Assembly: GCA_043803405.1 (NCBI GenBank)
Contig: JAZDKB010000018.1
Location: 96,001 to 160,000, forward strand
Reading direction: 5' to 3'
Length of the DNA: 64,000 nucleotides
DNA from: Spirochaetota bacterium
GTDB lineage: Bacteria; Spirochaetota; UBA4802; JAFGDQ01
Position numbers and translations under genes: made by a program. Shown one piece after another: positions 1,385 through 48,309 of the stretch (positions within the stretch are counted from its first letter, which is position 1; each line of letters begins with the position of its first letter). Below the pieces are notes generated by a model. That model saw nothing but the letters and a program-made list of their open reading frames with translations, ran no database searches and had not been told where the DNA came from.

Positions 1385-2236
1385 ATGTTGAACTGGTTTA
1401 AGAAAGAAAGCAAAGTTTTAAGAAAGAAAATTACGACAAGAGTGCTGGTAATAGCACTCGCTATAATTGCGTTCGCAGTAAGCGGGACTGTGTTGATGGC
1501 AGGATGGCTTGATGATAATCCAACAACTCCGGGTCAAGTTATTAATACCGATCCACCAACAGGCAATGTTAGTGAAAAAAATACGTTGTATGCAAAGACA
1601 CTAAGAACTTATGGCAGCGGAGTGTTATGGCTTTCAAAAAGAGATAGTCAAAGTGGAGGAGGGATAATTTGGGAGGGTGCAGATACTTATCAAGGTTGGA
1701 CTCAAGAAGTAGTTCAAAACTGTTTACGGTTTTTTTCTCATGATAATACAAATGCTGATAATTTTATTATTTATTCAAATGGTAATGTTAGAACAAAAGG
1801 TGTTCATACTTCTCAAAGTTACGCTTGCTCCTCAGACGTCCGTTACAAAAAAGACGTTTCAACATACTCAAACGCTTTAGAGAAAGTGCTTGGACTTCGC
1901 GGTGTGAGCTATTTCTGGAAAACAGACGAATACAAAGACAAGAATTTCAGCAAAGACAAACAGCTGGGATTTATTGCACAGGAAGTGGAAAAAGTAATAC
2001 CCGAACTAGTGTACACGGACGACAAAGGCTTTAAGACAATGAGCTACGACAGGCTTACTGCAGTTCTCGTGGAAGCAGTAAAAGAGCTAAAGGCACAGAG
2101 CGACGCGAAGATAAGCGTGCTTAGCAAAGAGAACGCAGAGTTAAAGCAAAGGCTCGCGAAGCTGGACGCTGTCGTAGCAGACAGGCTGGCTAAGCTGGAA
2201 AAGGCGGTGGAGAAGCAACAGCTGGCGCAGAAGTAA
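1385..2236 (+). CDS. Exported protein with C-terminal peptidase S74 (intramolecular chaperone) domain and coiled coil
   Basis: N-terminal basic + hydrophobic segment; SSDVRYKKDV, GFIAQEVEKVIPELV, YDRLTAVLVEAVKEL motifs; RBS GGAGG before ATG 1385 (ORF track starts 1355). Confidence 0.85.
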   Translation: MLNWFKKESKVLRKKITTRVLVIALAIIAFAVSGTVLMAGWLDDNPTTPGQVINTDPPTGNVSEKNTLYAKTLRTYGSGVLWLSKRDSQSGGGIIWEGADTYQGWTQEVVQNCLRFFSHDNTNADNFIIYSNGNVRTKGVHTSQSYACSSDVRYKKDVSTYSNALEKVLGLRGVSYFWKTDEYKDKNFSKDKQLGFIAQEVEKVIPELVYTDDKGFKTMSYDRLTAVLVEAVKELKAQSDAKISVLSKENAELKQRLAKLDAVVADRLAKLEKAVEKQQLAQK

Positions 2237-2258
2237 AGATGAAATTACTGTCTAGCAT

Positions 2259-2286
2259 GTAGGGGCACGGCTTGCCGTGCCCCTAC
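2259..2286. repeat. GTAG REP
   Basis: GTAGGGGCACGGC-TT-GCCGTGCCCCTAC, same as REPs around the RAYT. Confidence 0.9.
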
Positions 2287-2309
2287 ATGGCAAATTAAAT
2301 CTTACAGAT

Positions 2310-2340: not shown

Positions 2341-2371
2341 ATTGCGGAGTTATACAACAAAATCGGTTTTC

Positions 2372-2415
2372 AATAAAAGAACAATGCTGCCGAAAGGCAG
2401 CATTGTTCTTTTATT
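2372..2415. terminator. Perfect 20-bp hairpin with GAAA loop (bidirectional terminator-like)
   Basis: AATAAAAGAACAATGCTGCC-GAAA-GGCAGCATTGTTCTTTTATT. Confidence 0.7.
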
Positions 2416-2485: not shown

Positions 2486-2716
2486 ATGATTAACTCGGAA
2501 ATACAAAAAGAAATAATAAATGATTTAAGTAATCTTCCAATTGAATTACAAAAAAAAGTTAAAGAATTTACGCATACTTTATTGCTTACAAAATCGAAAG
2601 GTATTCCGGGACGGGATATATTAAAATTTTCCGGAATAATCGATGATAATAATGCTGAAGAATTACGTAAAATAATCGACGAAGGCTGCAGTAAGGTTGA
2701 TTATAATGAATGGTAA
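2486..2716 (+). CDS. Antitoxin (DUF2281-like) of VapC module
   Basis: 76 aa, IINDLSNLPIELQKKVKEF motif, overlaps PIN toxin. Confidence 0.75.
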   Translation: MINSEIQKEIINDLSNLPIELQKKVKEFTHTLLLTKSKGIPGRDILKFSGIIDDNNAEELRKIIDEGCSKVDYNEW

Positions 2717-3095
2717 ATATTTGCTGGATACGAATATTGTTATCGACCTTTTTAATGGGAAAAAGCAAATAACAAATTTGCTGGAAACTATTCCTCAAAT
2801 ATTTATTTCAAATATTACTATTGGTGAACTTTATTATGGATCGTTTAAGTCCAGGCAAAAAGATGAAAATATAAAAAAAATAGAAGAGTTTGTTATTAAT
2901 TCCTCAATACCTGATTCTAATATTGATACATCAAAAATATATGGACTTACTAAAAGTGAATTAAGTAAAAAAGGAAAACCTATCCCGGAAAATGATATCT
3001 GGATTGCCTCAATAGCTATACAATATTCGTTAACATTACTATCAAAAGACCTGCACTTTAAACATATTGAAAATCTCTCCTCAGAAATATTGTAA
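2706..3095 (+). CDS. vapC: VapC PIN-domain toxin
   Basis: YLLDTNIVI, ITIGELYYG, PIPENDIWIASIA, DLHF. Confidence 0.92.
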   Translation: MNGKYLLDTNIVIDLFNGKKQITNLLETIPQIFISNITIGELYYGSFKSRQKDENIKKIEEFVINSSIPDSNIDTSKIYGLTKSELSKKGKPIPENDIWIASIAIQYSLTLLSKDLHFKHIENLSSEIL

Positions 3096-3130: not shown

Positions 3131-3394
3131 ACAGGAAGTGGAAAAAGTAATACCCGAACTAGTATACACAGACAGCAAAGGCTATAAGACAATGAGCTAT
3201 GACAGGCTGACTGCTGTTCTCGTGGAAGCAGTAAAAGAGCTGAAGGCGCAGAGCGACGCGAAGATAAGCGCACTTAGCAAGGAGAATGCTGAGTTAAAGC
3301 AAAGGAAAGGCTTGCGACGCTGGATGCTGCCGTTGCAGACAGACTTTCTAAGCTGGAAAAAGCGGTGGAGAAGCAAAAGCTGGCGCAGAAATAA
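3131..3394 (+). pseudogene. Orphan diverged 3' copy of the S74 gene (matches 1978-2236)
   Basis: Codon-by-codon alignment with mostly third-position changes and an AAAGG duplication frameshift near 3305. Confidence 0.9.
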
Positions 3395-3397
3395 AGA

Positions 3398-3470: not shown

Positions 3471-3574
3471 CAATCATTGCTGATACGGGAAATATGTGAC
3501 TGGCGCAAGATAATTGCAAACAATCGGATTTATACAATTAAATCGGTTTTCAATAATAGAACCCTTTTCAATTG

Positions 3575-4047: not shown

Positions 4048-5046
4048 TCACTTTGACAATTTAAACAAGCGAACATTATCTTCATGCAGTATCCATTGAT
4101 ACTTGCCATCATAATGAGATTTATGCGGCATAGCTAGAGTATCTATTGTATCAATAAGACTTAAGTCCAACGGATTAACTATTTTTACATTTGCATTTGA
4201 GTTATCGGTAATCCAGATATACTTGCCGTCATAATCTGCATGGCACAGCCATAAACAATCTGTAAGAGTACTGCTTTGAATAACGGCAGCAGTGGCTGTG
4301 TCTATTTTATATATATTGCCGGTCATGCATGCAGCTATTATATTGATGCCGTCAAAACATATTGCCCATACATTAGATAGTCCATTTATTACTGTAAAAC
4401 TCCGATCTTCAGGTTTAATCCTGACTATAGAACCGGAAGAACTGCAGGTGACCCATAAGTAAGTTCCATCGAAACACATGTGTCGTGCGCCGTCGAGTAT
4501 TATTCCCTCGTATGAATATATTTCATTTGTTTCCGGATTAATTCTGTGCAATCTTTTAGTTGTTCCTCTGTCTGCTGCCCATATATATTTGCCGTCATAA
4601 GCAAGAGCTCTGACATCATCAAATGTAGAATGATCTTCCCATTCACTTTCCAGAGAATTTTTATTTATTTTTTGGAGATAAAAACTGCCAATACCTGCGG
4701 CGCCAGTGGAGCCGCCTGCTGTCCATAAATAATCTCCAACCAGTACCATTCGATATGCTTTTTGGGGGATGGCTTTGTAAATTAGTTCATGTGTACTTAT
4801 ATTGATCTTATATAAATAAGCATTAGGAGGATTTGCAAATCCTCCAATATACAAGTATTCACATTCCTGAGCAAAACTGACACTGCCTGTTTCACTGGGG
4901 CCGTTCAGATTAATATATGTTTCGGAGGAATAGAAGTATGGCTGGCATTTCGGGGTTTGCTGTATTTCAGAATCATTGGTATTATTGCTGCAGAAGCAAA
5001 GACTTGCGAAAAATAAAATAATTATAATCGGGATAAATTTCTTCAT
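4048..5046 (-). CDS. Lipoprotein, beta-propeller (YncE/Vgb-like)
   Basis: Signal ending LCFC; repeated [YF]DG.Y[IL]W blades. Confidence 0.75.
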   Translation of the reverse strand: MKKFIPIIIILFFASLCFCSNNTNDSEIQQTPKCQPYFYSSETYINLNGPSETGSVSFAQECEYLYIGGFANPPNAYLYKINISTHELIYKAIPQKAYRMVLVGDYLWTAGGSTGAAGIGSFYLQKINKNSLESEWEDHSTFDDVRALAYDGKYIWAADRGTTKRLHRINPETNEIYSYEGIILDGARHMCFDGTYLWVTCSSSGSIVRIKPEDRSFTVINGLSNVWAICFDGINIIAACMTGNIYKIDTATAAVIQSSTLTDCLWLCHADYDGKYIWITDNSNANVKIVNPLDLSLIDTIDTLAMPHKSHYDGKYQWILHEDNVRLFKLSK

Positions 5047-5172: not shown

Positions 5173-5226
5173 TTACAAATTCATTATAATATCAACAAGC
5201 TGATCAGCTCCGTTTTCCTCGAAGTA
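5173..5226 (-). pseudogene. Orphan 3' remnant of the 9518-10393 gene
   Basis: YFEENGADQLVDIIMNL* vs YFDENGADQLVDIIMNL*; 5 nt differences, 4 synonymous. Confidence 0.85.
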
Positions 5227-5312
5227 GTTTTACTATTCTAACAAATGTTTGACATAAATAAGATATTTTAAAGAATAACTTGAAGAAGCACTTTTCTAAA
5301 AGGATATTAAAT

Positions 5313-6269
5313 ATGCCGCAAAAAATCCTCCTCATCCCAAACATGCCTTTCTGGTCGGTTGATAAATGTGCTAAAGATCTGATTAAATATAATAAATCTG
5401 ATCTGGTGATAGATGTTATGTATTTTAATGAATTTATTGATAATTGGGAAAAAATATCAGTTAAATATGATTTAATATATCCGATGGTAAATAAACTTTT
5501 TTACGACTTTTTAGCAAGGAATATTCCTGTGAACAAGGCTATTACTGGAGTTTTGTCTTATACGTCGTGGGATAATCAAAAAACATTACCTCCGGGAAAT
5601 AATGTAAAGCCTCCGAAAAGTGATATTAAAAAACTTCGTAAAGCTGCAGGAGTAAATACTATATGCCGGAAGCTATGGGATTTATTCAGTCCGCATATTC
5701 CAATAGTTCATACTAAATATACATGTGATCTTGAAAAATTCTATCCTGATAAATTTATAAAAAATAGAAAATTAGTTGTTGGGTGGGCTGGGAGTTTGAC
5801 TAATAACGGATTGATAAGAGGAGTTCATGATATTATAAAACCTGTGTGCAGCAGATTTGATGAAATAGATCTGAAAGTTCAATGTGTAGAAGAAATGTGG
5901 ATAAAAGATGATGATATAATGCGTGAATTTTATAATAGTCTGGACCTGTATATTTGTGCGTCAAAAAGCGAAGGTGCTCCGCGTCCGGTTTTGGAAGCTG
6001 CCGCATGCGGAGTGCCGACCTTATCCGTTGATGTCGGTATTGTACCTGAACTTATTGAGAATAATGTGAACGGTTTTATTGTGGAAAGAACGCAGGAAGC
6101 ATTTTTTAATAAGTTAAAGTATATTATTAAAAATAAAGACATGCTTCCGGAAATGGGAATGAAAGTCAGAGAAAAGATGGAAAAAGAATTTAATTGGAAA
6201 AATATTATACACCAATGGACGGATTTTTTTAAAAAAGCTATTAAATTAAGGCATTGGGAAGAAAAATAA
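5313..6269 (+). CDS. Glycosyltransferase family 4
   Basis: SKSEGAPRPVLEAAACGVP EX7E motif; start taken at ATG 5313 (track 5280). Confidence 0.9.
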   Translation: MPQKILLIPNMPFWSVDKCAKDLIKYNKSDLVIDVMYFNEFIDNWEKISVKYDLIYPMVNKLFYDFLARNIPVNKAITGVLSYTSWDNQKTLPPGNNVKPPKSDIKKLRKAAGVNTICRKLWDLFSPHIPIVHTKYTCDLEKFYPDKFIKNRKLVVGWAGSLTNNGLIRGVHDIIKPVCSRFDEIDLKVQCVEEMWIKDDDIMREFYNSLDLYICASKSEGAPRPVLEAAACGVPTLSVDVGIVPELIENNVNGFIVERTQEAFFNKLKYIIKNKDMLPEMGMKVREKMEKEFNWKNIIHQWTDFFKKAIKLRHWEEK

Positions 6270-6309: not shown

Positions 6310-7677
6310 TTAACTTGCACTCCAGAAAAAATTAAAAGCTCCTGTGCCGGTTCCAGATGTCCCATATGTTTCCCAGTTTGATCCGGAAATGTCATCAAAA
6401 GCTACTAATCTGTCTAATGTTTCATCCTTTTCATCTGTTATATAAATTTTTCTATTTGTTAAAGCAACGAATCGTCTGGGACCATAAAAATCGTCACTCG
6501 TATTTAAAGGATTTTCAAGTAATGATTGCTGATTTTGAAGATTTGTATCCAGGCTGAAAACATAATTACTGGCCGGAGTCCAGTTATAATAAGAAGAAAC
6601 GTATACAGAATTTCCCTTAATATGGATATCAAATAAATTTGTGAAGCTGTTTTGATAAAAAGCTAATACCTGCTGGGTAGTCGGATTATATTTAAATACA
6701 GTTTGTACTGGTGCCAAAGAAGTATTATCCAGTCCAGCAATATATAACACTCCGCTATCATCTACAGTAATTCCAAATATAGATGTAATTTGATAATTAA
6801 CATTTACATTTGAAGTTATATTTAATCCGGTCTCATTATTACCATCAAGATCAGATCTATATAAGATATAACTGGCTAGAGTATCAGATACTGCATAATA
6901 TACAAAATCATTATTTCTGTCGACAGCTATGGCAGTAATCCCATAATCATATTCAGGCTCTGAAAAGTTAGTATAATTTGTTCCTGATATATTATCAACT
7001 CTTAATACACAATTTACACCCATTCCGCTTCCGCCATAATTATTTGCAATAAATATTCTGCCGTTTGAATCAAAATCAATATCATATGGGCGAAATTGAG
7101 TTGATGCTGTAAATGGATCAGTAGTACTTAAAGCTGCAACATTTGTACCGGTCAATGCAGTCCAGCCAGTAACTGCCATCCCATCAATCTGCACAATTCT
7201 TTGATTCAGATAATCCGGTATCACAATCTTCGTCTCGTAAAGCCCCATGGTAATCGGTATATCAACAGTTTCCCCGCCAGCAAGATCGCGTGTTGCTGCT
7301 CCGCGCAAAGTAGCGCTGGCAGTGTACGCTAGCACTTCGAATGTGCGCGCGCTGCCGGACGGGACTTCTACGGTAATGGAATCTGGCAAAGGGAGTGTTG
7401 TATAACTCTGCGTGATTGTATCCATGCCGGAACCGGTAATGTTAAGCGTAAGCGAAGTAATGTGCGACGGCGCGCTCTGCGCTTCGGCGTTCTTAGCAAA
7501 GAAGCATAACACGCGGTCGAGAATGGAGCTTTCGGGAACATTAAAGGCTGCCTTGTTGTTCAGACCAAGATTTATGCGGATTGTTACGCTTGAAGTGCCT
7601 TCGGGTGAGCAGGTGAGAATCGATATTGATATTATAATTGCTAAAATTAATATTATTATAAAATATTTATTTTTCAT
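6310..7677 (-). CDS. Surface lipoprotein, conserved N-terminal domain + beta-propeller; paralog of 10397-11704
   Basis: Lipobox-like ILTC; PYDIDFDSNGRI and similar blades. Confidence 0.8.
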   Translation of the reverse strand: MKNKYFIIILILAIIISISILTCSPEGTSSVTIRINLGLNNKAAFNVPESSILDRVLCFFAKNAEAQSAPSHITSLTLNITGSGMDTITQSYTTLPLPDSITVEVPSGSARTFEVLAYTASATLRGAATRDLAGGETVDIPITMGLYETKIVIPDYLNQRIVQIDGMAVTGWTALTGTNVAALSTTDPFTASTQFRPYDIDFDSNGRIFIANNYGGSGMGVNCVLRVDNISGTNYTNFSEPEYDYGITAIAVDRNNDFVYYAVSDTLASYILYRSDLDGNNETGLNITSNVNVNYQITSIFGITVDDSGVLYIAGLDNTSLAPVQTVFKYNPTTQQVLAFYQNSFTNLFDIHIKGNSVYVSSYYNWTPASNYVFSLDTNLQNQQSLLENPLNTSDDFYGPRRFVALTNRKIYITDEKDETLDRLVAFDDISGSNWETYGTSGTGTGAFNFFWSAS

Positions 7678-8042: not shown

Positions 8043-8630
8043 ATGGCAAAAAGAAAGAAACTAATAATCGATAAAAAATTTCAGTTTAAGACTATTTTTA
8101 AAATAATCGGAGTTGTTTATTCAATAATTGCGATTGTAGTAATTGCAATAGTTATAAACGCAGCTTCGAATAATAAAAAGCTTTCTGAGATTATGGAAAG
8201 ACAGAAGACGGCTATCCAGATACAGAAAGATGTTCAGTCTGCTCTAAGAGTATTATCCAAAGAGAAAAACTGGAAGACCATGAAGCTGGCCGGTGATGAA
8301 ATATCAAAAAACATTGAATTTAACCTGGAAGCAATAAATAAGAATTCAGATGCAATAAACAGCATAGCGCAAAATAATTCAAAACTGCTGTATGGAATTA
8401 TTCTTTTCAGTTTAGTACAGGCTGTTGTTATGTTTTTCTTGCTTATCAGAACAACTCACCAGATATCAGGGCCTATCTACCATATTTCCGCATATATAAG
8501 GGAGATTATAAATGGGAAATATCCTGATATCAGGCCTCTTAGAAAGAACGATGAATTAAAAGAATTTCATGAGCTTTTTGCGCAGATGGTGGAATCATTA
8601 AAACAGAAAAAGAAGCGGAAAAAAGGATAA
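8043..8630 (+). CDS. Two-TM membrane protein with HAMP-like C-terminus
   Basis: Two hydrophobic segments; THQISGPIY..LRKNDELKE. Confidence 0.75.
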   Translation: MAKRKKLIIDKKFQFKTIFKIIGVVYSIIAIVVIAIVINAASNNKKLSEIMERQKTAIQIQKDVQSALRVLSKEKNWKTMKLAGDEISKNIEFNLEAINKNSDAINSIAQNNSKLLYGIILFSLVQAVVMFFLLIRTTHQISGPIYHISAYIREIINGKYPDIRPLRKNDELKEFHELFAQMVESLKQKKKRKKG

Positions 8631-8670
8631 GGGCGAAAGTTAGACTGGCTATCTGGTATTGAAGAAGTAG

Positions 8671-8865
8671 TTATGATCTGTTAAGTGATGAATTCGCTTC
8701 TTCAATACTGTGGAAAGGAAAAACTCCGCGTTTGCATACAGGCGGTGACAATCTGAATCCGATCTCGAACAACCGGGCAATTCGCTTAAAGTATACAGCA
8801 TCCGGATTATATGTCCATAAAGCGCGTCTTGCATCTTCAAAGGATTTATATTTATATATAGGCAT
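8671..8865 (-). CDS. Small protein coupled to nucleotidyltransferase
   Basis: 64 aa, start overlaps upstream stop; repeated SFEDA / SIEEA motif. Confidence 0.65.
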   Translation of the reverse strand: MPIYKYKSFEDARRALWTYNPDAVYFKRIARLFEIGFRLSPPVCKRGVFPFHSIEEANSSLNRS

Positions 8866-9338
8866 TATTTTTCTTCATTTTTTTGTTTTATAATATTTTG
8901 CAGAAAAATAGAATCTTCTTTATCAATAGGCCTTACAGTATCTTTTTTCATAGCATACAGGGTTTCTGCACTGGCTATTCGAACGCGAAGTCCATTAATT
9001 ACTTTTTCAGTATATTCCAGATCGTCGTATTTAAAAGCTTCCCCAAGACTGCAAAGAATATCTATATAAAATCCATCCGGCGAACCATATCTTATAACAG
9101 GATACTCTTTTAACATTTCCGGATTTATTTCGTTAATGCTTTCATCGGCAAAAACTGATAAAAGTGCGTGTTTAAGGCGGGAAATATTATTATCATCCTG
9201 TTTTATAAACAAGTCAATATCTTCCGTTAGCCTGGGTAATCCATATAGGATTATGGCAAATCCGCCGATTAAAATATATTCAACTTTTTCTTTTTCGAGC
9301 GCTTCCAGAATCTCCATAAACCTGCTGAAATAATCCAT
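8865..9338 (-). CDS. Nucleotidyltransferase family protein (DUF6036-like)
   Basis: LIGGFAIILYGLPRLTEDIDL; MKKDTVRPIDKED. Confidence 0.85.
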   Translation of the reverse strand: MDYFSRFMEILEALEKEKVEYILIGGFAIILYGLPRLTEDIDLFIKQDDNNISRLKHALLSVFADESINEINPEMLKEYPVIRYGSPDGFYIDILCSLGEAFKYDDLEYTEKVINGLRVRIASAETLYAMKKDTVRPIDKEDSIFLQNIIKQKNEEK

Positions 9339-9517: not shown

Positions 9518-10393
9518 TTACAAATTCATTATAATATCCACAAGCTGATCTGCTCCGTTCTCGTCGAAATAATATTCCTGGCAGTTCTGCACTCGCCAGA
9601 ACTGATCCTCAAATTGTCTTGGAACTGGCTCAAAGATCGCCTCTTTGTTAAAATAGATTATTTCCCAGAAGGCATTATATCCGGCACCGCTTACTATAAA
9701 ATCGAATGCGTTAAAGTAGTCTACTATCGGGAAGTAGCTTTTATCCGAATAATTTGTGGAATACAGCATCTGATATTCTGTGTCTGTGAGATAGGAATAT
9801 TTTTTTTTAATCGCTTCGTATTCGCCCGGTTCGCCATTGTATGCAAGAAGGCATACAGAACGTTTATTTTTAATACCTAGTTTTTTTAATGCTTTATCAC
9901 GCGTGAAAATTTCGTCTCTGTTTCTGATGATAAGCGGATTTAATTGCCGCATTTCTACTGTGCTTTTAAATGGTTCTGTTGCAAAAATTAAATCAAAATG
10001 ATCCGGATTAAAGACTAATTTTTGATCCGGAAGAGGAATTGAGAAGTATTTATCGGAAACCTGGCGACAGAGAAGAATTTTTTTACAGTTCAATTCATGG
10101 ATGAAATTGCAGGTCATAAACCAGATAAGATCAAACAGGATAACATCGGGTTTAATTTTTTCCAGTATTTTATAAAGCGAAGATATATGATAATCCTTTT
10201 TTAAAAGTATTTCTTCATTTTCAACCGGGATTTTAAAAAATTTTATTTCATTTGAAAAAAATTCAAAGTCAGAACTGTGTATAATGGAGTAATCACATTG
10301 AATACTTTTTCTCTTAAAAGCATTGGCTATTGCAATGCCGGTAATGACGCGGCCGGAACCGGTAATGCCTGAAGTATAATAGACGATTTTCAC
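9518..10393 (-). CDS. GT-B fold glycosyltransferase-like protein
   Basis: GITGSGRV N-terminal motif; DFIVSGAGYNAFWE..P..R..EDQ..R C-terminal motif. Confidence 0.7.
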   Translation of the reverse strand: MKIVYYTSGITGSGRVITGIAIANAFKRKSIQCDYSIIHSSDFEFFSNEIKFFKIPVENEEILLKKDYHISSLYKILEKIKPDVILFDLIWFMTCNFIHELNCKKILLCRQVSDKYFSIPLPDQKLVFNPDHFDLIFATEPFKSTVEMRQLNPLIIRNRDEIFTRDKALKKLGIKNKRSVCLLAYNGEPGEYEAIKKKYSYLTDTEYQMLYSTNYSDKSYFPIVDYFNAFDFIVSGAGYNAFWEIIYFNKEAIFEPVPRQFEDQFWRVQNCQEYYFDENGADQLVDIIMNL

Positions 10394-10396: not shown

Positions 10397-11704
10397 TCAG
10401 CAGACATGATAAAAATCGAACATTCCAACACCTGAGCCATAAATGCCGTAGGTGCCCCAATTTGATCCTGCAATATCATCCATATTGATCAATTTAGAGC
10501 TATTATTACCAAGTGAGGCTTCATCAACAATAGTGATTTTTCTATTTAATATTGCCACGAAATGACTTGCTCCGTAAAAACTTCCTTGAGTTGTACTCAA
10601 TGCGTAAGTCCCATATCCATGTATTAATGCTAAGGTATTCAAATCAAGTTGAAGTATTTGATTGTCAGTGCCTGAGGATGTAAGATTCGCGACGTATAAA
10701 TAGGGTGGTTTTACTAGCACATGCATCGCAGTTTTCATGGTTATAGTATCGTCATTAAAAGTTATTTCGGATTCAGAAGAGGGATTATATTTACTTATCT
10801 GGCTTACCGGAGCTCCTGCTGCGTGATGTGAAATATAGAGTATCCCGTCACTATCAACTGCAAGACCACTAATTGTACCAATCGATGTAAAAGTTAATGG
10901 AGATATCCCAGTTCCATCAAGATTACATCTGTATAGCGCACTTGTGGTAGCATAGTATATATAACTTAAATTTCTGTCAATTGCTATAGCATATACATCG
11001 GGATTACTGTCATTTAATATTAATTCCCAACTATTTGATGTATTATTAATATGATTTAATCTAAACATTTTAGGCGGCCCGGCTGTTGCACCTGGATTAC
11101 ATATATATATCCTTCCATTTGAGTCGAAATCAATATCATACGGGCGGCAATAACTAATACTGCTTGGGCTCGTTAAATTCGAAGCATTTTTTTCAATCCA
11201 TCCGTTTCCATCCATATCATCAATTTGTACAATTCTACTATTCATATAATCAGGAACTATAATTTTCGTCTCATAGAGCCCCATTGTTACAGGAATAGTA
11301 ACTGTTCCGCCGGTTAAGTTGCGCGTTGTTGCTCCGCGTAAAGTAGCACTTGGTGTGTACGCGAGCACTTCGAACGTGCGTGAGTTGCCGGACGGGACTT
11401 CTACAGTAATGGTGTCCGGCAAAGGGAGCGTTGTATAGCTTTGCGTAATAGTATCCATGCCGGAACCGGTAATGTTAAGAGTAAGCGAAGTAATGTTTGA
11501 AGGTGCTGCTTCCGCGTCCTTTGCAAAGAAGCGCAACACGCGGTCGAGAATGGAGCTTTCGGGAGTGTTAAAAGCAGACTTGTTTCCCAATCCGAGATCA
11601 ATAGTGATTGTGACTTTTGAGACGCCTTCGGGGGAACAGCCAAGTAGCGTAAAAGACAATATGAATGCAAAAAGTAATATTCCGAAAATAGATTTGTTTT
11701 TCAT
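10397..11704 (-). CDS. Surface lipoprotein, conserved N-terminal domain + beta-propeller; paralog of 6310-7677
   Basis: Lipobox LLGC; N-terminal ~150 aa nearly identical to paralog. Confidence 0.82.
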   Translation of the reverse strand: MKNKSIFGILLFAFILSFTLLGCSPEGVSKVTITIDLGLGNKSAFNTPESSILDRVLRFFAKDAEAAPSNITSLTLNITGSGMDTITQSYTTLPLPDTITVEVPSGNSRTFEVLAYTPSATLRGATTRNLTGGTVTIPVTMGLYETKIIVPDYMNSRIVQIDDMDGNGWIEKNASNLTSPSSISYCRPYDIDFDSNGRIYICNPGATAGPPKMFRLNHINNTSNSWELILNDSNPDVYAIAIDRNLSYIYYATTSALYRCNLDGTGISPLTFTSIGTISGLAVDSDGILYISHHAAGAPVSQISKYNPSSESEITFNDDTITMKTAMHVLVKPPYLYVANLTSSGTDNQILQLDLNTLALIHGYGTYALSTTQGSFYGASHFVAILNRKITIVDEASLGNNSSKLINMDDIAGSNWGTYGIYGSGVGMFDFYHVC

Positions 11705-31669: not shown

Positions 31670-31714
31670 CAGCGAGCGAACCAGCAATGACGTAATGATC
31701 AGAATCGTTAACAT

Positions 31715-32176: not shown

Positions 32177-32272
32177 TTCTGGAATATGTATAGTAAAGAT
32201 TAGCGACAATTGCAATATTTTTTTCTATTTATATGCCGTTTATCGGGTTATATAATAATTAAAATCGAACAT

Positions 32273-32485
32273 GTAGGGGCACGGCATGCCGTACCCCTAC
32301 AGATGGACATGTCCCTATAGACAATACTGGGACATATGTAGGGGCAAAAATTTTTCATCCCTACAGACATTGCCCCTGCAGGTGTCCGTCAAACAACGGT
32401 GTAGGTATGTCAAAAACGATCGGATCAATTATTCGCGATTTTAAAATCAGTATGACGAATTGGAATAAAGATGAGCATAATTCGA
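32273..32485 (+). pseudogene. REP cluster plus internally deleted RAYT remnant
   Basis: REPs at 32273-32300 and ~32338; then MSKTIGSIIRDFKISMT|NWNKDEHN, matching two RAYT segments with the WQR..Y region missing. Confidence 0.65.
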
Positions 32486-32608
32486 TTGTAAATAATAACG
32501 AAGTATTTTTATTGACTCTTTCCTGTAATGATTCTACTTTTTTTATACCTACTTAAATAAATTTATCTTTTAATATAATTTGTAACAAATATTTAAAAGG
32601 ACAATCCA

Positions 32609-33337: not shown

Positions 33338-33376
33338 GCTATATTGAAGAAATAATATATTATATAGGAGTTTCCA

Positions 33377-36300: not shown

Positions 36301-37204
36301 TGCTGACAATGAATTTAAGATTGATGCAGCCGCCTTTATGCCAGGAAAGCTTATTATACATGGTTCTTCATGGAGAGATTTTTCCGAGTACTCGCCAGCT
36401 ACTCTGAAGTATAATAAAAGCTTTAACAGTAATTTTCATGATAATCTTGACAGCTCGCCTGACAACAAATGGATATCGGTTTCTGATAAAGATAAAATCG
36501 CTGTCTGGGATTCTCAGAAACGAAGCCTTTTATGGGAAAAGAGTATTAATAAAGACAGGATAAGCAAAAGCGCGTTTTCTGCTGACAGCAGGCTCCTGGC
36601 ATTGTACCAATACGATACTTACGACTGGGGCAAGGGACGTATTGCCAGGTTCGTTGACGTACAAACTGGCGCAGTTAAGCTTGAAGCAAAAAAGCGCTAT
36701 CAGGGTCATGCGGATACAGTGCGCTTCAGTAATGACAGCAAAATGCTTTGCATTTCATCATCCGAAAATCCGATTGTCTTTATTTCTGCTGAAACAGGCG
36801 AGGAGATATGGACTGCTTCAATGAAAAACTGCAATGTTTTCGATATTGCTTTTTCTCCGGATAATAAATGTTTTGCTGCAGCTGTAAGGAATTATAATAC
36901 ACATATACGAAAAATATTGATTTATGACATAAACACCAAAAAGGTTCTGTGGGAATTTACGAATCTTCGAAGTGATATACAATGCCTCATGTTCTCTGCA
37001 GACAATAAATACCTGTTTGAGGGCGATGAGTCATCTATACGTATCCGCGATCTTGCTACCAAAAAGATAATGTATACTATTGCCGGTTTTGACGGCCATC
37101 CCAAAAAGATGGGATTCTCCGGCAGCGAATATTTCTGCCTGCTGACAAGCGAAGACCATTTGTATGTTTATAACTGGAAGGATATTGCAGGATTTTTAAA
37201 ATGA
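33377..37204 (+). CDS. Large exported WD40-repeat protein
   Basis: Hydrophobic N-terminus with IVC; many [AF]SPD[GN] blades, HSDEVNAIAVSPD..ATGGKD..ICLWD. Confidence 0.85.
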   Translation: MYAAMVNALKKIMPYFIFLFIIVCTNTPNSIKTDADKNKIFSSMYLNNKEPAGKLELIPRIIPISDFSAKEIIQKSNPISWYVKGLRGVHIEDSETGKKFYKIFGFGSTVVKSDYIHLLDKEKKLVFVEVYDSGGHSYYAIVDMNANKVIHEQETPGCLVLPLEGNLLVHESKTKKWFLRDYTFAQKFENDLTRMLTNKKIQYIHYKNIDEKSRSILCSSEYKDMNENGILINISWKKDFKNAKAIPLVSAFEGKKHYSDQFQFAQSGEWAAWEYSNSVQKNESIYTIYSELYFFLRIEGEIYDTPFYGGVIVKRESGRGADTDIISEFLTHKDYGECFAVYNCTWLKGSRSVLLYTRDDLKKAYKANKEQAVAKKLALQKSSYSVNIEISGAKEITFYPPAPVYQYKVSPDGHFVAIEDWEFRISVYPIVNGAVSAVPCSRFLPYGDKVKGIYFSPDSNTILTTALNSAGIVSWNRFGALNAKIDSGQVSDIHCYTNNVFVFAEGERQIKIRSIYGKIICDYFIPFDDDVYKPLCVTASASGSRIIAGTSGGWIYFIDTKTGKFSRKDYKTSDITQVCLSPSDDYFAFNVPFKKTVYVCNLNGRIIRNISPAVFNLTKESWQKEIDKSPAGNCSRMIYTPEKEISLMTSSHKGDFLVYVNQDNDICFMPDNFSTIIYSKYHSDEVNAIAVSPDDSLVATGGKDMKICLWDRNGRLTGTFFGCTNPVENIAFSKDGKEIIASSSGQIISFDRNGSILRENRFDFYGNQGSGNSGSVYLYHKKGSYPELKNLQGNTLNKFKDYKLKGEYIITDQWAYEVTRYSVTDNSFVNNAVFSQDDKYIALIKDDTNIDFCETNHKILFSIATNNARYNKAVFSPDGRYAACNIYRGKYAGDGIVGLEQVLVIDLQTKKNVLLLNENPGFDFSGNSESLFTYNDGIIKQWDLKEIFKGKTRIINCSGQKGITRDYRLSFKDFYADNEFKIDAAAFMPGKLIIHGSSWRDFSEYSPATLKYNKSFNSNFHDNLDSSPDNKWISVSDKDKIAVWDSQKRSLLWEKSINKDRISKSAFSADSRLLALYQYDTYDWGKGRIARFVDVQTGAVKLEAKKRYQGHADTVRFSNDSKMLCISSSENPIVFISAETGEEIWTASMKNCNVFDIAFSPDNKCFAAAVRNYNTHIRKILIYDINTKKVLWEFTNLRSDIQCLMFSADNKYLFEGDESSIRIRDLATKKIMYTIAGFDGHPKKMGFSGSEYFCLLTSEDHLYVYNWKDIAGFLK

Positions 37205-37280: not shown

Positions 37281-37477
37281 GTATTTTTATTGACTCTTTC
37301 CGGTAATATTTCTATTATTTTTAATAGTATTTAATTTTATGCTTACTTACTTGAAAAGGGAATTAAATTAATAGGCAAAGAAACAGTATTTTACGGTACG
37401 CATTTAATTCACAAAAAGAAAAGCTCCCACCATAGAATTAAGTATGTCAGGCCGGGAATGTAAATTAAGATATAAGC
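37281..37477 (+). pseudogene. Promoter + 3'-end remnant of the 32609-33337 gene
   Basis: 37281-37320 matches 32503-32540; 37355-37477 matches 33217-33339, with a new TAA at 37461. Confidence 0.88.
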
Positions 37478-39887: not shown

Positions 39888-42377
39888 ATGACGAAAAGTT
39901 CCGATAACAAAATAAAACTTACATCAAGACCGTATGAGTTATCAAATGATAATATTAGTTCCATCAGGGATTCATTTGCAAATCATCTGGAGTATTCACT
40001 GGCAAAAGATCAGTTTTCAGCTACAAAACATGACTGCTATAAAAGCCTTGCGTATGTTATGCGCGACAGGCTTGTAAGGCGCTGGATTGAAACCCAGCAG
40101 GCTTATTATAATTACGATTCCAAACGGGTATATTATCTTTCTCTGGAATTTTTAATGGGCAGGGCGCTCGGAAACAGTATGATTAATACCGGCTTGTACG
40201 AAAAGGCTTCGCATGCGTTTGCAGGGATGGAATATTCGCTGGAAGAGCTTCGCGATGCGGAATGGGATGCCGGTCTCGGCAATGGCGGCCTTGGCAGGCT
40301 CGCTGCCTGTTTTCTGGATTCAATGGCAACTCTGCAGCTACCGGCATACGGCTACGGTATTCGTTACGATTACGGCATCTTTTTTCAGCAGATTATGGAC
40401 GGCTACCAGGTCGAAATTCCGGATAACTGGCTCAGATACGGGAATCCCTGGGAATTTGAAAGGCCGGAATATCTGTACCCTGTAAAATTTTACGGGAATG
40501 TGAACCAGTATAACGACGAACATGGGAATCTGAGAAATGAGTGGGTAAATACCGAACAGGTTATGGCTATGGCATACGATACGCCGATTCCGGGATACAA
40601 AAACAATACGGTAAATTCTTTGAGACTGTGGTCTGCAAAATCAACGCGGGAATTTAACCTGGAATATTTCAATTACGGCGATTATAACAAAGCTGTTGAG
40701 GATAAAGCGGAATCGGAAGTAATATCAAAAGTGCTTTATCCGAATGATAATGTTTTTGAAGGAAAGGAACTGAGGCTTAAGCAGGAATATTTTTTTGTTT
40801 CTGCCAGCCTTCAGGATATTGTGCGTCGTTATAAAAAAGCTCATGATTCGTTTAATGAATTTTCAGATAAAGTCGCAATTCAGATGAATGATACTCACCC
40901 TTCTGTTGCAATAGCGGAGCTAATGCGGATTTTAGTGGACATCGAGAAACTTGACTGGGATGTTGCATGGGATATTACTAAAAATACATTCGGATATACA
41001 AATCATACAATTCTTCCCGAAGCTCTGGAGCAGTGGCCTGTTCATCTGTTTGACAGGGTTCTGCCAAGGCATCTGCAGATTATATATGAGATCAACAGGC
41101 GCTTCCTGGAAAAGATAAGCAGGACTTTCCCGGACGAGAGCGGACGGCTTTCAAGAATGTCGATCATAGAAGAAGGCCAGGAGAAAAAAGTACGCATGGC
41201 AAACCTGGCAATAATAGGAAGCCATTCGATCAATGGTGTCGCAGCTTTGCACAGCGAAATAATAAAAAATCAGGTCTTTCACGATTTTTATGAGCTGTGG
41301 CCGGAGAAATTTAACAATAAGACCAATGGCATAACACAGCGCAGATGGCTTAAACTCTGCAATCCGAAACTGGCGTCATTAATCGATTCCAAAATAGGTG
41401 ATCAATGGGTTACCGATCTTTACGAGTTGAAAAAACTGATCCCATTTGCCGACGATGTGGCTTTCCAGGAAGATTGGTGCAGAGTAAAAAGAGAGAATAA
41501 AATATTCCTCGCGGAATATATAAAGATACATACTGATGTAAAGGTTAATATTGATTCCATTTTTGACTGTCATGTAAAAAGAATACATGAATACAAGCGA
41601 CAGCTTCTGAATGTTCTTCATGTCATTACGCTATATAATCGTTTCGTGACAAACAGTTCAAAATCTGACGTGCCGCGAACAGTGATTTTCGGGGGAAAGG
41701 CTGCGCCCGGATACTATATGGCAAAGCTTATCATTAAGCTGATAAATTCGGTGGCACAGACTATCAATAATGATGCACGCGTGGGTGACAGGCTAAAAGT
41801 CGCGTTCCTAAGGAACTATTGCGTTTCAAACGCAGAGAAAATAATTCCTGCAGCCGATCTTTCCGAGCAGATTTCCACTGCGGGCACGGAAGCATCGGGC
41901 ACAGGCAATATGAAATTCGCTTTAAACGGAGCTCTTACGATCGGCACTCTTGACGGCGCAAATATTGAGATAAAAGAGGAAGTAGGCGACGAAAATATAT
42001 TCATCTTCGGACTTAACACTGAAGAAGTGAACGCAAAAAGATCTTCGGGATACAGATCGTGGGATTGTTATATTACTAATCCGGAGCTAAAGCTTGCGAT
42101 AGATATGATACAGGGCGGGTATTTTTCCGGCCATGACCGTGATCTCTTTAAGCCCATAACAAATTCTCTTCTGGATATGAACGATCATTATATGCTGCTT
42201 GCTGATTATGATTCATTCATTAAATGCCAGGAAAAAGTAAGCGAAACATATAAGAACGCGAAATTATGGACAAGGATGTCCATAATGAATACTGCCAGGA
42301 TGGGTAAATTTTCTACGGACAGGACTATTAAAGAATACGCAGATGATATCTGGGGCGTTAAGCCTGTCGAATTTTAA
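39888..42377 (+). CDS. glgP: Glycogen phosphorylase
   Basis: [37 protein letters not shown]. Confidence 0.98.
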
Positions 42378-44088: not shown

Positions 44089-44152
44089 TTATCTGCCGGT
44101 TATGCTGCATACAATGCCGGATAATTTTGTGGCCGGTTGTCTCAGTGGAATT

Positions 44153-44245
44153 TTATTTCAGTATCTTCCTCAATATTATACTTTTGAAAAAACGCCTGAT
44201 AATATCCAGGAATTCCTGAGCACCAACCTGAGGCCATTTAATAAG
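44153..44245 (-). pseudogene. Orphan 3' copy of the 46921-48309 CoA-ligase gene
   Basis: Encodes the identical last 30 aa (LIKWPQVG..RKILK*) with 8 nt changes, all synonymous. Confidence 0.92.
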
Positions 44246-44504
44246 ATTACCTCACAAACAAATTTTATTTAATTTCTCTCCTTCCGCTATTTTAGTTTCA
44301 TCTTTGCGTAATAAACACCTTTTTGCGGTTCTAAGCTTATTTATTTTATAAATCGCTTCAATTGATTAATCCGACAAACTGATCGATCAAACACATAATT
44401 TTATGTGGATTTTTATTGACGAAATAACTTAATAGTAAAATATCCTTGACTTAATGTTAATATTTAAAATAATTTTTTCTAAAAACTCCATATTATTCTT
44501 AATC

Positions 44505-45011
44505 ATGAAAAATATAAAAATAATTATTTTACTTTCATTGCTTTTCAGTGTAGCTAACGCACAAACTTTAGAAAATAAAAAAATTCCCGACTTCCCTGTT
44601 TTTGATGTTTACGACAATAGACATTCAATTTTAGACCTTTTAAAAGACCTGCCGGACAAAGGATACCTTATTCTTAATTTCACTTCAATGTTTTGCAAGC
44701 CGTGTAAAAAAGAAATCCCGGAATTAATGAACATAAGCGATAAATTTAAAAACAGAATAAAAATTATTTATATTTATTCTGAAATCAACAACAAGGAAGT
44801 AATTAATGACGCTTTAAAACTGGGCATTAAAAATAATGAATTAATCAACGTATGCACTGATCTTTTTTCTACAATAAAAAAGGAGCAGAATGTTAAAAGC
44901 GTACCTTATACAATACTGATTTCAAAAAACGGTGATGTCCTTAACCGTATCGAAGGATATACGGAAAAAAATATTAAAATAATTTATTCACTTTTGGAGG
45001 CAACCAAATGA
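44505..45011 (+). CDS. TlpA-like exported thioredoxin
   Basis: Signal peptide; LNF..FCKPCKKEIP; VP.T cis-Pro. Confidence 0.85.
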   Translation: MKNIKIIILLSLLFSVANAQTLENKKIPDFPVFDVYDNRHSILDLLKDLPDKGYLILNFTSMFCKPCKKEIPELMNISDKFKNRIKIIYIYSEINNKEVINDALKLGIKNNELINVCTDLFSTIKKEQNVKSVPYTILISKNGDVLNRIEGYTEKNIKIIYSLLEATK

Positions 45012-46861
45012 GACTGGCGTGTGTATTTCGTGTATCCAAGCTTGTCGTTTTAATTGTTATATTATTTATTAATAATTCATTCGCTCAGAATGAAAAGAAG
45101 CTTAGTATATTTGTTCAGAATATTGATGTTAAAGATGTGCCTCAAAAGTATTCGGAACTTGCTATTGATTCAATTAAAACTGCAATTACCGAACAATACG
45201 GCCAGAAATATACCATGGCCGACAAGGAGTCGCTGGCATCCACAATGTCCAATGAAGAATTAAAACAGGCTTATGGATGCGATGATGAAAAATGCAGACA
45301 AAAAATAGCCGAACAGCTGCGGACTGATTTTACAATAACAGGGAAGATATATCGGGATGCTAATCAAGACATGTTTAGAATAGCCCTTAATTTAAATGAT
45401 AAAAGCGGCAAAACAATCAGGATAAACTACGCGAAATGCCATAGCAATCAAGTAGAATATTACAGCAAAGAATTAACAAAATCACTTTTCAATCCGCAAT
45501 ATAAAGTGCGGGAAGCCGGAATCGGCGATATAAGTTCTGAAGGAATTATTGTAGGAACACTTAAAATGCAAAAGGTTAAAGATCTGGATATCTCAATAAT
45601 GAAATTTACTACAACAGACAGATTTATAAATGATATACTTCCGATGATAAAAGATGGCATAAGGAAAGGTGATGAAAGATATGAGTTAAAAGACTATAAT
45701 AATGCGTTAGAAAACTATAATAAAACTTTAAATACTGTGACAAATGATATTCCTCCGGATAAAGTAACGAAAGATATTGAAATTCTTAAAGAGAAAATTC
45801 AGCAAAGAATCGGAACTGTTATTTATGCCCAATTTGCCGCAAGAGTGGAAGAAACAGACAGAAAGGTAAATGCAGCGCCTTCACCGAAATTAGATCAGAT
45901 GGAGAAGTTTAAAGAATTATATTCAATTATTTTGCATGATTTAAATCGAACAGAATTAGCTTATAAAACAAATAATATAAATATCCTTATTAATCAGGTC
46001 AACAACCGCCATGATTTAATAGCAGCAAGCATTGTAAATCATTATTCTGCACTTGGCGCCGCTTCCTATAACAGTCAGAAGTTTACTGAAGCCATTGCCT
46101 ATTACAATAAGGCTATTGCATCAAGTGTATATTTTATCGATCAAAAAAAGACAAAAACATCGACTACACAACTGAACCGAAAAATAGAAATTGTCAATAA
46201 AGCGGGACAGGACTTTCTTGCCAACCGCGTCTACTATTTCATTGATTCAGCCTTAACCTTTAATGTTTTTAAAAATTATGATAAAATGAAAAGCACAATG
46301 GCAGATGCTGCGATGCTGATTAAAGAAAATGAGGCTTACAGCACCGGGGATTTAATTGTGTATTATAACGGCAAAGCCGATTTTTTAAATCAGCCAAAAT
46401 ATACTTCTAGCGAGGAGTTAAACAGGAAAAGGATACAAAATGAACAACTGAGAATAAGCCAACAAAAAAGAAAAGATGCAATAGAAGCAAATAAAAAGTC
46501 GTATGGCCTAGCTTTTTTTTATTCAATATTACCTGTCACAAGCGGCATGGCGTATGGTTTGGATAATAACGGGATAGGAATTATTCCATGTGTTCTAAAA
46601 ATAACCGGCTTATTAGTATGTATAGCAAAACCAGCAGTCGGTCTTACCATATATGGAGTTGGAGCGGCTGCGGATTTAGTAGGAGGGATTAATTTTGTCT
46701 CTTTCTATAATAAAAAATTTGCATACAATGGATTTATACAAGATAGTGTAAGTCTAAATATTGAACCTATTTTATTTTCAAATTATCAACCAAGAGATGA
46801 GAAAAGTTTAACTATGAATAGGCTTGATGGGCTGAGATGTTCAGTGATATATCATTTTTAA
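45008..46861 (+). CDS. Exported helical/TPR-like protein with C-terminal hydrophobic segments
   Basis: Signal peptide; GCDDEKC..IA..L..D..ITG N-terminal domain; TPR-like helices. Confidence 0.7.
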   Translation: MRLACVFRVSKLVVLIVILFINNSFAQNEKKLSIFVQNIDVKDVPQKYSELAIDSIKTAITEQYGQKYTMADKESLASTMSNEELKQAYGCDDEKCRQKIAEQLRTDFTITGKIYRDANQDMFRIALNLNDKSGKTIRINYAKCHSNQVEYYSKELTKSLFNPQYKVREAGIGDISSEGIIVGTLKMQKVKDLDISIMKFTTTDRFINDILPMIKDGIRKGDERYELKDYNNALENYNKTLNTVTNDIPPDKVTKDIEILKEKIQQRIGTVIYAQFAARVEETDRKVNAAPSPKLDQMEKFKELYSIILHDLNRTELAYKTNNINILINQVNNRHDLIAASIVNHYSALGAASYNSQKFTEAIAYYNKAIASSVYFIDQKKTKTSTTQLNRKIEIVNKAGQDFLANRVYYFIDSALTFNVFKNYDKMKSTMADAAMLIKENEAYSTGDLIVYYNGKADFLNQPKYTSSEELNRKRIQNEQLRISQQKRKDAIEANKKSYGLAFFYSILPVTSGMAYGLDNNGIGIIPCVLKITGLLVCIAKPAVGLTIYGVGAAADLVGGINFVSFYNKKFAYNGFIQDSVSLNIEPILFSNYQPRDEKSLTMNRLDGLRCSVIYHF

Positions 46862-46920
46862 AAAATATTAACACTTTATTAAGGTAATAATATTTATTAG
46901 TTGAAAGCATACCAATGCTT

Positions 46921-48309
46921 TTATTTTAAAATCTTCCTCAATATTATACTTTTGAAAAAACGCCTTATTATATCCAGGAATTCCTGAGCACCCACCTGAG
47001 GCCATTTGATGAGTGCTTCTGTAAGGTTTGAGCATTTGATAGGCTCAGTACGCCAGTCCGATATCAGGACCGGCTTATAGACTTCCGGAGAGCGCAGCAG
47101 AAAACCGGCATCCAATAACTCGCCTTTTGCGCAAATGTGTACTTTAATTGGGACACCCAGTTTTTCATTAAGCGCTTTTAATGTACTATCATCAGGTTTA
47201 TTTTTATTATTATGTGTCTCAACGCGTATATGCAGCCTTTTTCCTGTCACTATAACGAAGTATACGGCGCTGTCAAATTGCTTTGCAAATTCAAGAATTG
47301 ACTGTTCCAGGTTATACGAATATATCTTTTTGCCGTTCAGATTTATTTCATCATCCATTCTGCCTAGAATTTCAATTACCGGGGCCGGATCGCCGCACGC
47401 ACATTTTCCCGGGACGATTCTGCACATATCTCTAGTGTAAAAACGGAAAAGCGGGGCTGCTTCCCTGTAATATGAAGTAACTGTAAGCACTCCGGAATCC
47501 CCGGCCTTTACAGGCTCTTTTGTCTCCGGATCAAGTATTTCTATTATAAAAGAGTCCCTGTGAAGATGATGATTCCCCTTTTTGCATGTTGAAGCAATGC
47601 CGCCGGTTTCCGTGCTCCCGTAAACCGACCTTACAGCAACGTTCCACTTGTTCTCGATGTATTCTTTAAGCGCAGGCGGTACAACGGCTCCGGACATTAA
47701 AGCGAGCTTGATTGATCCAAGGTCTTTTTTCAGGTCATATCCGCATTTATCCGCAACCATTTCCAGCATAATAAGCTCATTTGGCAGGCACCCGATTGCT
47801 TCAACCTTAAGCCGTTTGATTATTTCCAGTGTCCGCTGATAAGTGACGTTCCAGCTGAGGTAGCCTGCAGGCACTATTATACCTCCAGTCTGTCTGGTTC
47901 TTATCTCGAGTACAAACGGGGGGACTGCGAAAGAATAAGGAAACCTGTTAAGCACAAGCATGCCTTTTTTTATTTCGGATGTCCATCTGCTGGTCATTGT
48001 TGCTTCACGTTCATAATCGTCAACAGTAAACCAAGACGCAACCGGAGCGCCGGTAGTACCGAAAGATTCGTGGTAATGCCACGCTTCCGATCTTGGTACG
48101 GCAAGCGTATCTTCGGGAGCAAGCCCGCGCAGATCTTCCTTTAAAGTTAGCGGGAGCTTAAAGAAATCCTCCCATGAGTTCAGCTTGAGTCCCGCGTATT
48201 TCTTTTTGTAAAGGCCGTTTTTGCTGGCTTTACTGAATAATTTCTGGATTGACGGCAGAGAAGCCAGCCTGCCGTCAGCTGTGTTGCTGGTCATATTTTT
48301 TGTTTTCAT
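46921..48309 (-). CDS. Phenylacetate-CoA ligase-like adenylate-forming enzyme
   Basis: HESFGTTG, YGSTE, RFYTRD, ILGRMDD. Confidence 0.85.
   Translation of the reverse strand: MKTKNMTSNTADGRLASLPSIQKLFSKASKNGLYKKKYAGLKLNSWEDFFKLPLTLKEDLRGLAPEDTLAVPRSEAWHYHESFGTTGAPVASWFTVDDYEREATMTSRWTSEIKKGMLVLNRFPYSFAVPPFVLEIRTRQTGGIIVPAGYLSWNVTYQRTLEIIKRLKVEAIGCLPNELIMLEMVADKCGYDLKKDLGSIKLALMSGAVVPPALKEYIENKWNVAVRSVYGSTETGGIASTCKKGNHHLHRDSFIIEILDPETKEPVKAGDSGVLTVTSYYREAAPLFRFYTRDMCRIVPGKCACGDPAPVIEILGRMDDEINLNGKKIYSYNLEQSILEFAKQFDSAVYFVIVTGKRLHIRVETHNNKNKPDDSTLKALNEKLGVPIKVHICAKGELLDAGFLLRSPEVYKPVLISDWRTEPIKCSNLTEALIKWPQVGAQEFLDIIRRFFKSIILRKILK

Follow-up and report, generated by a model that had tools for sequence, protein, structure and literature searches.

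We examined a 64,000-nucleotide stretch of a Spirochaetota genome (G000, contig C18, positions 96001-160000; hereafter the window), in which four unrelated genes are each followed by other genes, which we call cargo, and then by a diverged copy of the gene's own 3' end, which we call a tail relic. The genes are labeled A (an S74-domain gene), B (a gene resembling family 28 glycosyltransferases, GT28-like), C (a metallo-beta-lactamase-fold, or MBL, gene) and D (a CoA ligase). Somewhat more probably than not, in our judgment, these pairs are scars of additive import via host recombination, concentrated in one variable stretch; they do not resemble the work of a novel machinery for gene capture. 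The assembly comprises 3.98 Mb in 54 contigs and is 94% complete with 1.34% contamination, and the window is without N. The nearest genomes found, G001 and G002 of the same genus, share ~70-78% identity with G000 in shared genes.

Four genes and their duplicated tails

An initial annotation, prepared from the letters of the window alone, had described the four pairs and proposed that an incoming allele recombined inside each gene. Self-BLASTN and pairwise alignment recovered all four, with coordinates that agreed with the stated ones or differed by a few bases, and codon-level counts found divergence of the coding type. In every pair the relic lies downstream in the same orientation, as described. 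The features concerned are as follows, where GC3 denotes G+C content at third codon positions.

1355-2236, plus strand: case A, intact gene with an S74 domain (PF13884); accessory, assigned by domain match
1978-2239, plus strand: duplicated tail within gene A, 88% identical to relic 3131-3397 over 267 columns
2257-2290, no strand assigned: palindrome like repetitive extragenic palindromic (REP) elements, right after the S74 stop
2345-2382, plus strand: 38-nt block of 3' untranslated region, 89% identical to 3525-3562, by which the repeat runs past the stop
2486-3095, plus strand: cargo A, a small gene and a PIN-domain toxin (GC3 0.21-0.22)
3131-3397, plus strand: relic A, 86 codons, frameshifted by a 5-nt duplication that the initial annotation missed
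9518-10393, minus strand: case B, intact GT28-like gene, its tail (9518-9579) duplicated
5173-5234, minus strand: relic B, 18 codons including the stop, 87% identical to 9518-9579 over 62 columns
5280-6269, plus strand: cargo B, an inverted family 1 glycosyltransferase (GT1) that occupies the place of a GT gene body
6310-7677, minus strand: second lipoprotein-like gene, 50% identical in amino acids to 10397-11704
8043-9338: 195-amino-acid (aa) gene (plus strand) and AbiEii-like nucleotidyltransferase (minus strand), from domain and congener comparison
10397-11704, minus strand: first of the lipoprotein-like genes, paired with the intact GT gene, as also in G001 and G006
32503-32556, plus strand: upstream region of gene C, 54 nt, copied at 37281-37334
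32609-33337, plus strand: case C, intact MBL-fold gene, RNase Z/BN-like by source names
33210-33339, plus strand: duplicated tail in gene C, matching relic 37348-37477 over ~130 columns
33377-37204, plus strand: cargo C, a 1275-aa WD40/beta-propeller protein (GC3 0.38)
37281-37334, plus strand: relic copy of the upstream region of C, with no further copy in the genome
37348-37477, plus strand: relic C, ~40 codons, beginning 13 nt after the upstream-region copy
44151-44245, minus strand: relic D, 30 codons plus stop, 92% identical to 46919-47013 over 95 columns
44454-46861, plus strand: cargo D, a thioredoxin-like gene and a tetratricopeptide repeat (TPR) protein gene, inverted (GC3 0.29)
46921-48309, minus strand: case D, intact AMP-binding CoA-ligase gene, its tail (46919-47013) duplicated

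Each relic has its own gene as its sole strong match in the 3.98-Mb genome. Codon-level identities are 89.8, 90.2, 86.3 and 91.1% for pairs A through D, and the longest identical runs are 32, 18, 25 and 35 nt, respectively. The relics are 54-267 nt long, and the inserts between gene and relic measure 0.9-4.3 kb. When the four pairs are pooled, there are 40 synonymous differences in 106 sites versus 15 nonsynonymous differences in 407 sites, which corresponds to a ratio of nonsynonymous to synonymous divergence (dN/dS) of 0.07 (P ~2e-16 versus neutral drift). By codon position, 40 differences fall at third, nine at first and six at second positions. Relic D is the extreme case, wherein the encoded protein is identical to that of the gene over 30 residues and all eight changes are synonymous. 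As a result of this low dN/dS, we concluded that both copies were translated during most of their divergence, and the codon counts thereby uphold the earlier view that the differences are mostly synonymous and both copies once translated. The proportion of synonymous differences (pS) ranges from 0.32 to 0.45 across the four pairs, and the alleles in each pair appear from these counts to have diverged in separate coding lineages at similar distance. Two of the four relics, A and C, have since started to decay; A carries a frameshift and C a premature stop three codons ahead of the old stop, the latter absent from the initial annotation.

Cases A and D fit displacement of a 3' end, and a search for a remnant of the head or upstream region found nothing above shuffled sequences at either locus (83 of 300 shuffles reach the score at A, 159 of 300 at D). 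Relic D faces the 3' end of ccsA. At A the repeat resumes 110-130 nt beyond the stop, with a differing hairpin element intervening in each copy. The hairpin after relic A is related to elements at 29256-29285 and 31629-31658, and the variant of the REP-like palindrome at 2257-2290 is found in G000 within the window only. The small cargo gene at A is a putative antitoxin from its position alone and matches no Pfam family. The S74 gene itself occurs in none of six family genomes and in three of 121 other genomes of the class; the nearest S74 protein is 81% identical, in the C-terminal half only. Members of the S74 family start with a signal-like N-terminal segment and finish in a conserved S74/coiled-coil part, with a variable region between the two.

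Case C departs from this arrangement by its retained upstream region, the score of which is reached in none of 300 shuffles. Since both the upstream region and the tail were kept, the simplest reading would be that relic C descends from a whole second copy that lost its body, ~650 nt in all. The copied upstream region at 37281-37334 includes a 10-of-12 match to a sigma70-like promoter, where two matches were found versus 1.6 expected by chance.

Case B does not fit simple 3'-end displacement. The second lipoprotein-like gene (6310-7677) means that the cargo at B includes a second module, and two lipoprotein-GT modules stand in tandem in both G001 and G006. The corresponding locus of G002 holds a lipoprotein gene, two different inverted genes and an 18-codon GT tail (L051:11422-11478). 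That tail is the only match in G002 to the GT gene, which leaves the relic without a parent, and therefore replacement of a gene body can leave a GT tail without a restored gene. The GT relics of G000 and G002 start at about the same codon and have equal extent, though these are two cases only, and they differ at five third, one first and one second codon positions. A common origin of the two relics was also sought in their cargo-side flanks, which look alike by eye, but 541 of 1000 shuffles reach the same score and the idea was rejected. Across the class, the GT-tail motif has 16 matches in 15 of 122 genomes, 14 of them within full genes and two in the relics of G000 and G002. Relic B is of the GT_A type (90% identical to the intact tail) and not of the old GT_B paralogue type; no remnant of a head or upstream region stands above shuffles at this locus (198 of 300 reach the score). 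The 195-aa gene in the interval is conserved in G001 and G002. The GT relic of G002 lies directly next to a broken BrnT/CopG pair.

Polarity and clustering of tail relics

For a genome-wide count, genes of G000 were called with a simple dicodon model and 3058 were kept (>300 nt, adequate score). One scan compared the first, middle and last 100 nt of each gene with DNA within 15 kb, and another compared 40-residue protein pieces with translations within 20 kb. The DNA scan found six relics of tails, each lying downstream of its gene in the same orientation, and none of middle pieces nearby. The protein scan over the 3058 genes gave nine tail rows classed as fragments, eight of them downstream on the same strand: the four window cases and one each on contigs C20, C39, C47 and C54. 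The lone upstream row sits in a 488-codon open frame and was discarded as a paralogue. By comparison, tails of complete neighboring paralogues are symmetric, with 34 downstream and 34 upstream. The polarity of eight versus none has P ~0.008, but the four window cases had been chosen beforehand by the initial annotation.

When eight genes are drawn at random, four of them fall within 47 kb in 68 of 200,000 trials. Because half of the eight relics lie within 47 kb, the data indicate a local hot spot and not a lineage-wide route; the pattern of tail relics is polar and strongly local. The earlier suggestion of a general gene-capture route in this lineage is therefore not supported, with relics at eight of 3058 genes, half of them in the window, and none at 333 open reading frames (ORFs) of relatives. 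The latter figure comes from 392 kb of relatives' DNA, made up of 13 further GT loci and 14 regions, among which no relic was found beside a parent gene.

The cleanest case outside the window is that on C47, where a 72-aa gene separates the intact gene from the relic and apparently splits an operon, which we take to be of the xanthine-dehydrogenase type. This relic carries a frameshift or premature stop and has kept its connection to the beginning of the following gene, and its repeat extends beyond the stop codon. Among relatives, the operon gave weak matches to the small-subunit gene only and no usable empty site. The cargo on C39 is presumably antitoxin-like. On C20 the relic belongs to a tandem paralogue of which both head and tail are kept, and the relic on C54 lies ~2 kb from a tyrosine recombinase.

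Head relics were considered as a mirror class (nine rows from the DNA scan and four from the protein scan) and rejected, as most of the rows that were inspected proved to be paralogues, rhs cores or wrongly called starts. A real head case exists at C13:38741-38827, which matches 41971-42057 at 87 of 87 positions and comprises the first 29 codons of the gene. This copy lies 3.1 kb upstream of the intact gene, is fused to a fragment of another gene and represents a recent case of the mirror type. In G001, L053:10368-10539 is a head relic of the beta-propeller gene at 4048-5046; it comprises the first codons and the region upstream of them, with no ORF after it. Repeated rhs-like cores (80-96% identical; the rhs label is by resemblance) with small toxin-antitoxin-like genes between them are present at C10:137658-143854 and C49:22084-27900.

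Competing histories for the relics

If the pairs are indeed scars of additive import, donor DNA from a related lineage, ~10% diverged and presumably foreign, would have carried an allele of the resident gene together with its own downstream genes. One side of this DNA may have paired by homology while the other joined without long homology, as in homology-facilitated illegitimate recombination (HFIR), or a circle may have entered by a single crossover. The gene would stay functional with a new end, the cargo would arrive behind it, and the old sequence, presumably the relic, would be left downstream to decay. The tail alone would have been left in A, D, C39 and C47. At C and B a larger part of the old locus would have remained, to be cut down later by deletions or to give way to an inverted cassette.

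Cargo composition is consistent with such an origin. Genome-wide, GC3 has a median of 0.39 and its tenth percentile is 0.29, and seven of the nine cargo genes lie at 0.21-0.30; the two that are unremarkable in this respect are the WD40 gene (0.38) and the 195-aa gene (0.34). Searches of G001 and G002 with the WD40 protein, and with the TPR protein of cargo D, found no full-length match. The part of the initial annotation that invoked recombination with an incoming allele is thus favored by the polarity, the coding-type divergence, the atypical cargo and the lack of full-length matches to the C and D cargo in the two congeners. Its claim that the split lies inside the gene in all four cases is not supported, given the upstream region kept at C, and given that B is a second lipoprotein-GT module whose tail is parentless in G002. 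The comparison with rhs loci and HFIR drawn there is apt; published work on such anatomy invokes HFIR or circle models. Regarding DNA uptake, G000 has one match to ComEC and two to DprA, but these families also match 10 and 11 of 14 control genomes and are therefore no proof of competence.

Several observations weigh against additive import. First, the retained upstream region at C would be unexplained by a split inside the gene. Second, a break at about the same GT codon in two species is an outcome that random joins would seldom give. Third, neither G001 nor G002 yielded a cargo-free allele, and in both the genes after the MBL gene, the CoA ligase and the C39 gene differ from those beyond the relics; likewise, neither the 88-aa gene nor dtd occurs at any of 24 other MBL loci (flanks of ~1.5 kb). 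Fourth, outside the window the polarity is just four versus none, and of these four the C20 relic is an internally deleted tandem paralogue and the C54 relic lies beside a tyrosine recombinase. Finally, HFIR is rare in experiments (PMC3240628).

Closer relatives were sought in other ways. At the tails of C and D, the congeners resemble gene and relic to the same degree (63-74%). The search for close strains with the MBL gene gave, apart from the gene itself, a best relative at 60%. A metagenome scan with the CoA ligase confirmed none of 76 candidate stretches, and one with a degenerate GT-tail motif found none, although records near this genome may be left out of both scans.

As an alternative, whole tandem copies, either duplicates made in place or entire second alleles, could have been maintained under selection with cargo between them, after which the downstream copy lost its body and its tail was kept, since tails border the signals of the next gene. 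For the four cases together we regard this as unlikely, although tandem-copy decay is probably the history of C and perhaps that of B. It accords with the upstream region and tail of C, between which ~650 nt are missing, with the C20 paralogue that kept head and tail, and with the second lipoprotein gene at B and the tandem modules of G001 and G006. However, random decay should also give upstream tails and middle pieces, of which none were found except remnants of a Y1 transposase, and A and D are without any remnant of a head or upstream region. Furthermore, relic B is not of the old GT_B paralogue type, and the MBL gene and the CoA ligase each have a single match per genome in every relative that has them.

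Site-specific integration is also conceivable, in which an attP site carries a replacement gene end and the integrase was later lost or acts in trans, as for cis-mobilizable elements (CIMEs). The anatomy of icdC is alike (PMC11148124), the C54 relic has its tyrosine recombinase ~2 kb away, the GT tail boundary recurs in G002, and a bias of tails over heads is typical of integrative islands (3760 versus 159 in Islander; PMC4383910). We nonetheless consider this explanation improbable. The initial annotation had noted no integrase in view, and indeed the five tyrosine recombinases of the genome have no tblastn match in the window at E values up to 1, though a broken HUH/Y1 transposase is present. 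Resolvase (PF00239) has no match in the genome, which is 94% complete, the scanned cargo proteins include no Pfam recombinase, and the window contains no tRNA, tmRNA or Rfam family. Seven junctions compared by eye have no common core motif, and eight unrelated targets would require many integrases. Locus A has no plasmid match, and viral relatives of its S74 protein are at most 50% identical. A CTAC/GTAG junction motif, an idea taken from REP transposases, was found at B only and set aside.

A bolder proposal, to which we assign a rather low probability, is that a ~50-kb zone captures genes without an integrase, with conserved gene tails as reusable anchors; it is prompted by the GT tail, which is cut at about the same codon in two species and frames unlike inverted cassettes. 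Nicking at hairpins of the type associated with REP-associated tyrosine transposases (RAYT/REP) or with DUF559 would start one-sided strand invasion. Such hairpins are found at two of the four loci (A and C). If the proposal were true, ordinary gene ends would be att-like entry points with no recombinase of their own.

It is very unlikely that the pairs arose because two related organisms of a single metagenome were assembled into a chimera. The assembly does have 54 contigs and 1.34% contamination, and the four pairs are similarly divergent. In contrast, the frameshifts or premature stops in relics A, C and C47 are unlike the live alleles of a second strain, the junctions between cargo and relic would be in neither parent, the window is without N, and an independent assembly, G002, has a similar GT relic. 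Long target-site duplications that later diverged have next to no chance of being the general explanation, and are ruled out for the four window pairs by the coding-type divergence, since a dead copy drifts at all positions and relic D is protein-identical to its gene, even though the repeats bracket the cargo, extend past the stop in A and C47, and have a perfectly identical counterpart in the C13 head duplicate.

Known systems and the variable region

The anatomy seen here is already known from rhs genes, type VI secretion systems (T6SS), icd and tRNA islands, and the window presents a variant of it at ordinary genes. Displaced ends have likewise been described for contact-dependent inhibition (CDI) systems. 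At rhs loci, dissociated degenerate tips are reported together with a model of a circle entering by single crossover (Jackson et al., 2009; PMC2935791), and the likeness lies in an intact gene followed by decaying 3' fragments of variable length, with genes between and no integrase. Those genes have a variable toxin tip behind an identical core and form long arrays, whereas here the end itself is conserved, there is one relic per locus, the genes are unrelated and ordinary or accessory, and what is gained is the cargo. Where rhs, CDI and T6SS loci have toxin tips and immunity genes, the S74, GT28-like, MBL and AMP-binding genes targeted here have ends that are conserved.

In Vibrio cholerae, displacement of T6SS effector-immunity genes, including a shifted 3' end, has been ascribed to HFIR (Kirchberger et al., 2017; PMC5361080), the products of which are insertions with deletions and 3-10 bp of microhomology (PMC3240628). 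A single homologous anchor, one illegitimate join and old sequence moved downstream, sometimes as a 3' remnant, would be shared with the window under our preferred reading; the window cases are without the toxin-immunity logic. Beside prophage e14 of Escherichia coli K-12, the displaced end icdC comprises 165 bp and has 12 nucleotide changes and two conservative substitutions (PMC11148124), and Islander describes the same signature at tRNA genes, where an integrase is required (PMC4383910). In these systems, too, a replacement 3' end restores the gene and the displaced end lies beyond the insert, at ~93% identity and with mostly silent changes for icdC. They carry an integrase and use a fixed att site, whereas the window inserts of 0.9-4.3 kb lie at genes unrelated to one another and have neither an integrase nor a shared core.

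Small integrase-free cassettes between conserved flanks also recall CIMEs and minimal mobile elements. CIMEs need the att sites of a cognate integrase, and the minimal mobile elements of Neisseria are swapped by double crossover with no duplicated end. In the window no cognate integrase was identified, and gene ends are duplicated. Locus B resembles a cassette slot between a lipoprotein gene and the GT tail, occupied in G000 and in G002 by inverted cassettes that differ. Taken together, the window finding works like the rhs, T6SS and icd systems yet belongs to none of them, having neither toxin tip nor integrase. We found no survey of displaced tails at ordinary genes in the literature covered, which is limited.

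Should one-sided recombination leave tail relics routinely, these would provide a simple marker of additive gene gain that can be read from a single genome, and the synonymous divergence of relic from gene would allow the donor pool to be dated and sized. Integrase-based island finders reject such cases by design, as with the integrase and coding-sequence filters of Islander (PMC4383910). The window by itself is no proof of the mechanism, and the history of two of its four cases is more complex. Threads worth following are the recurrence of the GT boundary and the hairpins of loci A and C.

The stretch is a high-turnover region. Its first 50 kb contain seven toxin-antitoxin-like loci, an RHS gene, DUF559 and NYN genes and a broken Y1 transposase. 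The toxin-antitoxin-like loci, between 2486 and 49468, are a PIN pair, an AbiEii-like gene, BrnT/CopG, YefM/YoeB, MazF/DUF2281 and two HicAB pairs. The NlpC/P60 and MBL genes are adjacent in both congeners and 11.5 kb apart in G000, and the core blocks of the window have other neighbors in the congeners. The Y1 transposase marks the region as variable, and its causal role in the relics is a candidate idea only. Its features are these:

21664-22404, plus strand: broken Y1/HUH transposase (RAYT-type), frameshifted and with a palindrome inserted near its start
21604-21637, 22113-22143 and 22462-22495, no strand assigned: Y1-associated REP-like palindromes, from sequence, of the same family as the palindrome at 2257-2290

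Further copies or remnants of the Y1 gene or its palindromes lie at 2257, at 31712 and, a short way upstream of the MBL gene, at 32257-32500. A ~110-nt repeat has three copies (29299-29409, 30431-30541 and 31275-31382) and a ~145-nt hairpin repeat has two (29178-29322 and 31551-31695). The repeats at 29178-31695 separate the DUF559, NYN, MazF/DUF2281 and HicAB genes in the manner of a small cassette array, and a related copy is present near a contig end in G001. The intergenic segment at 21290-21420, between NlpC/P60 and Y1, is GC-richer and structured by eye, with no Rfam match at gathering thresholds. Several window blocks adjoin, in the congeners, genes of a region that in G000 lies ~75 kb from the window (C18:19535-20887), where the gene is presumably dnaA-like, judging by its orthologue in G001. 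Finally, the intergenic segment at 530-660 resembles a miniature inverted-repeat transposable element, with four more partial copies in G000 and dozens of matches at 80-91% in G001, many of them at contig ends.

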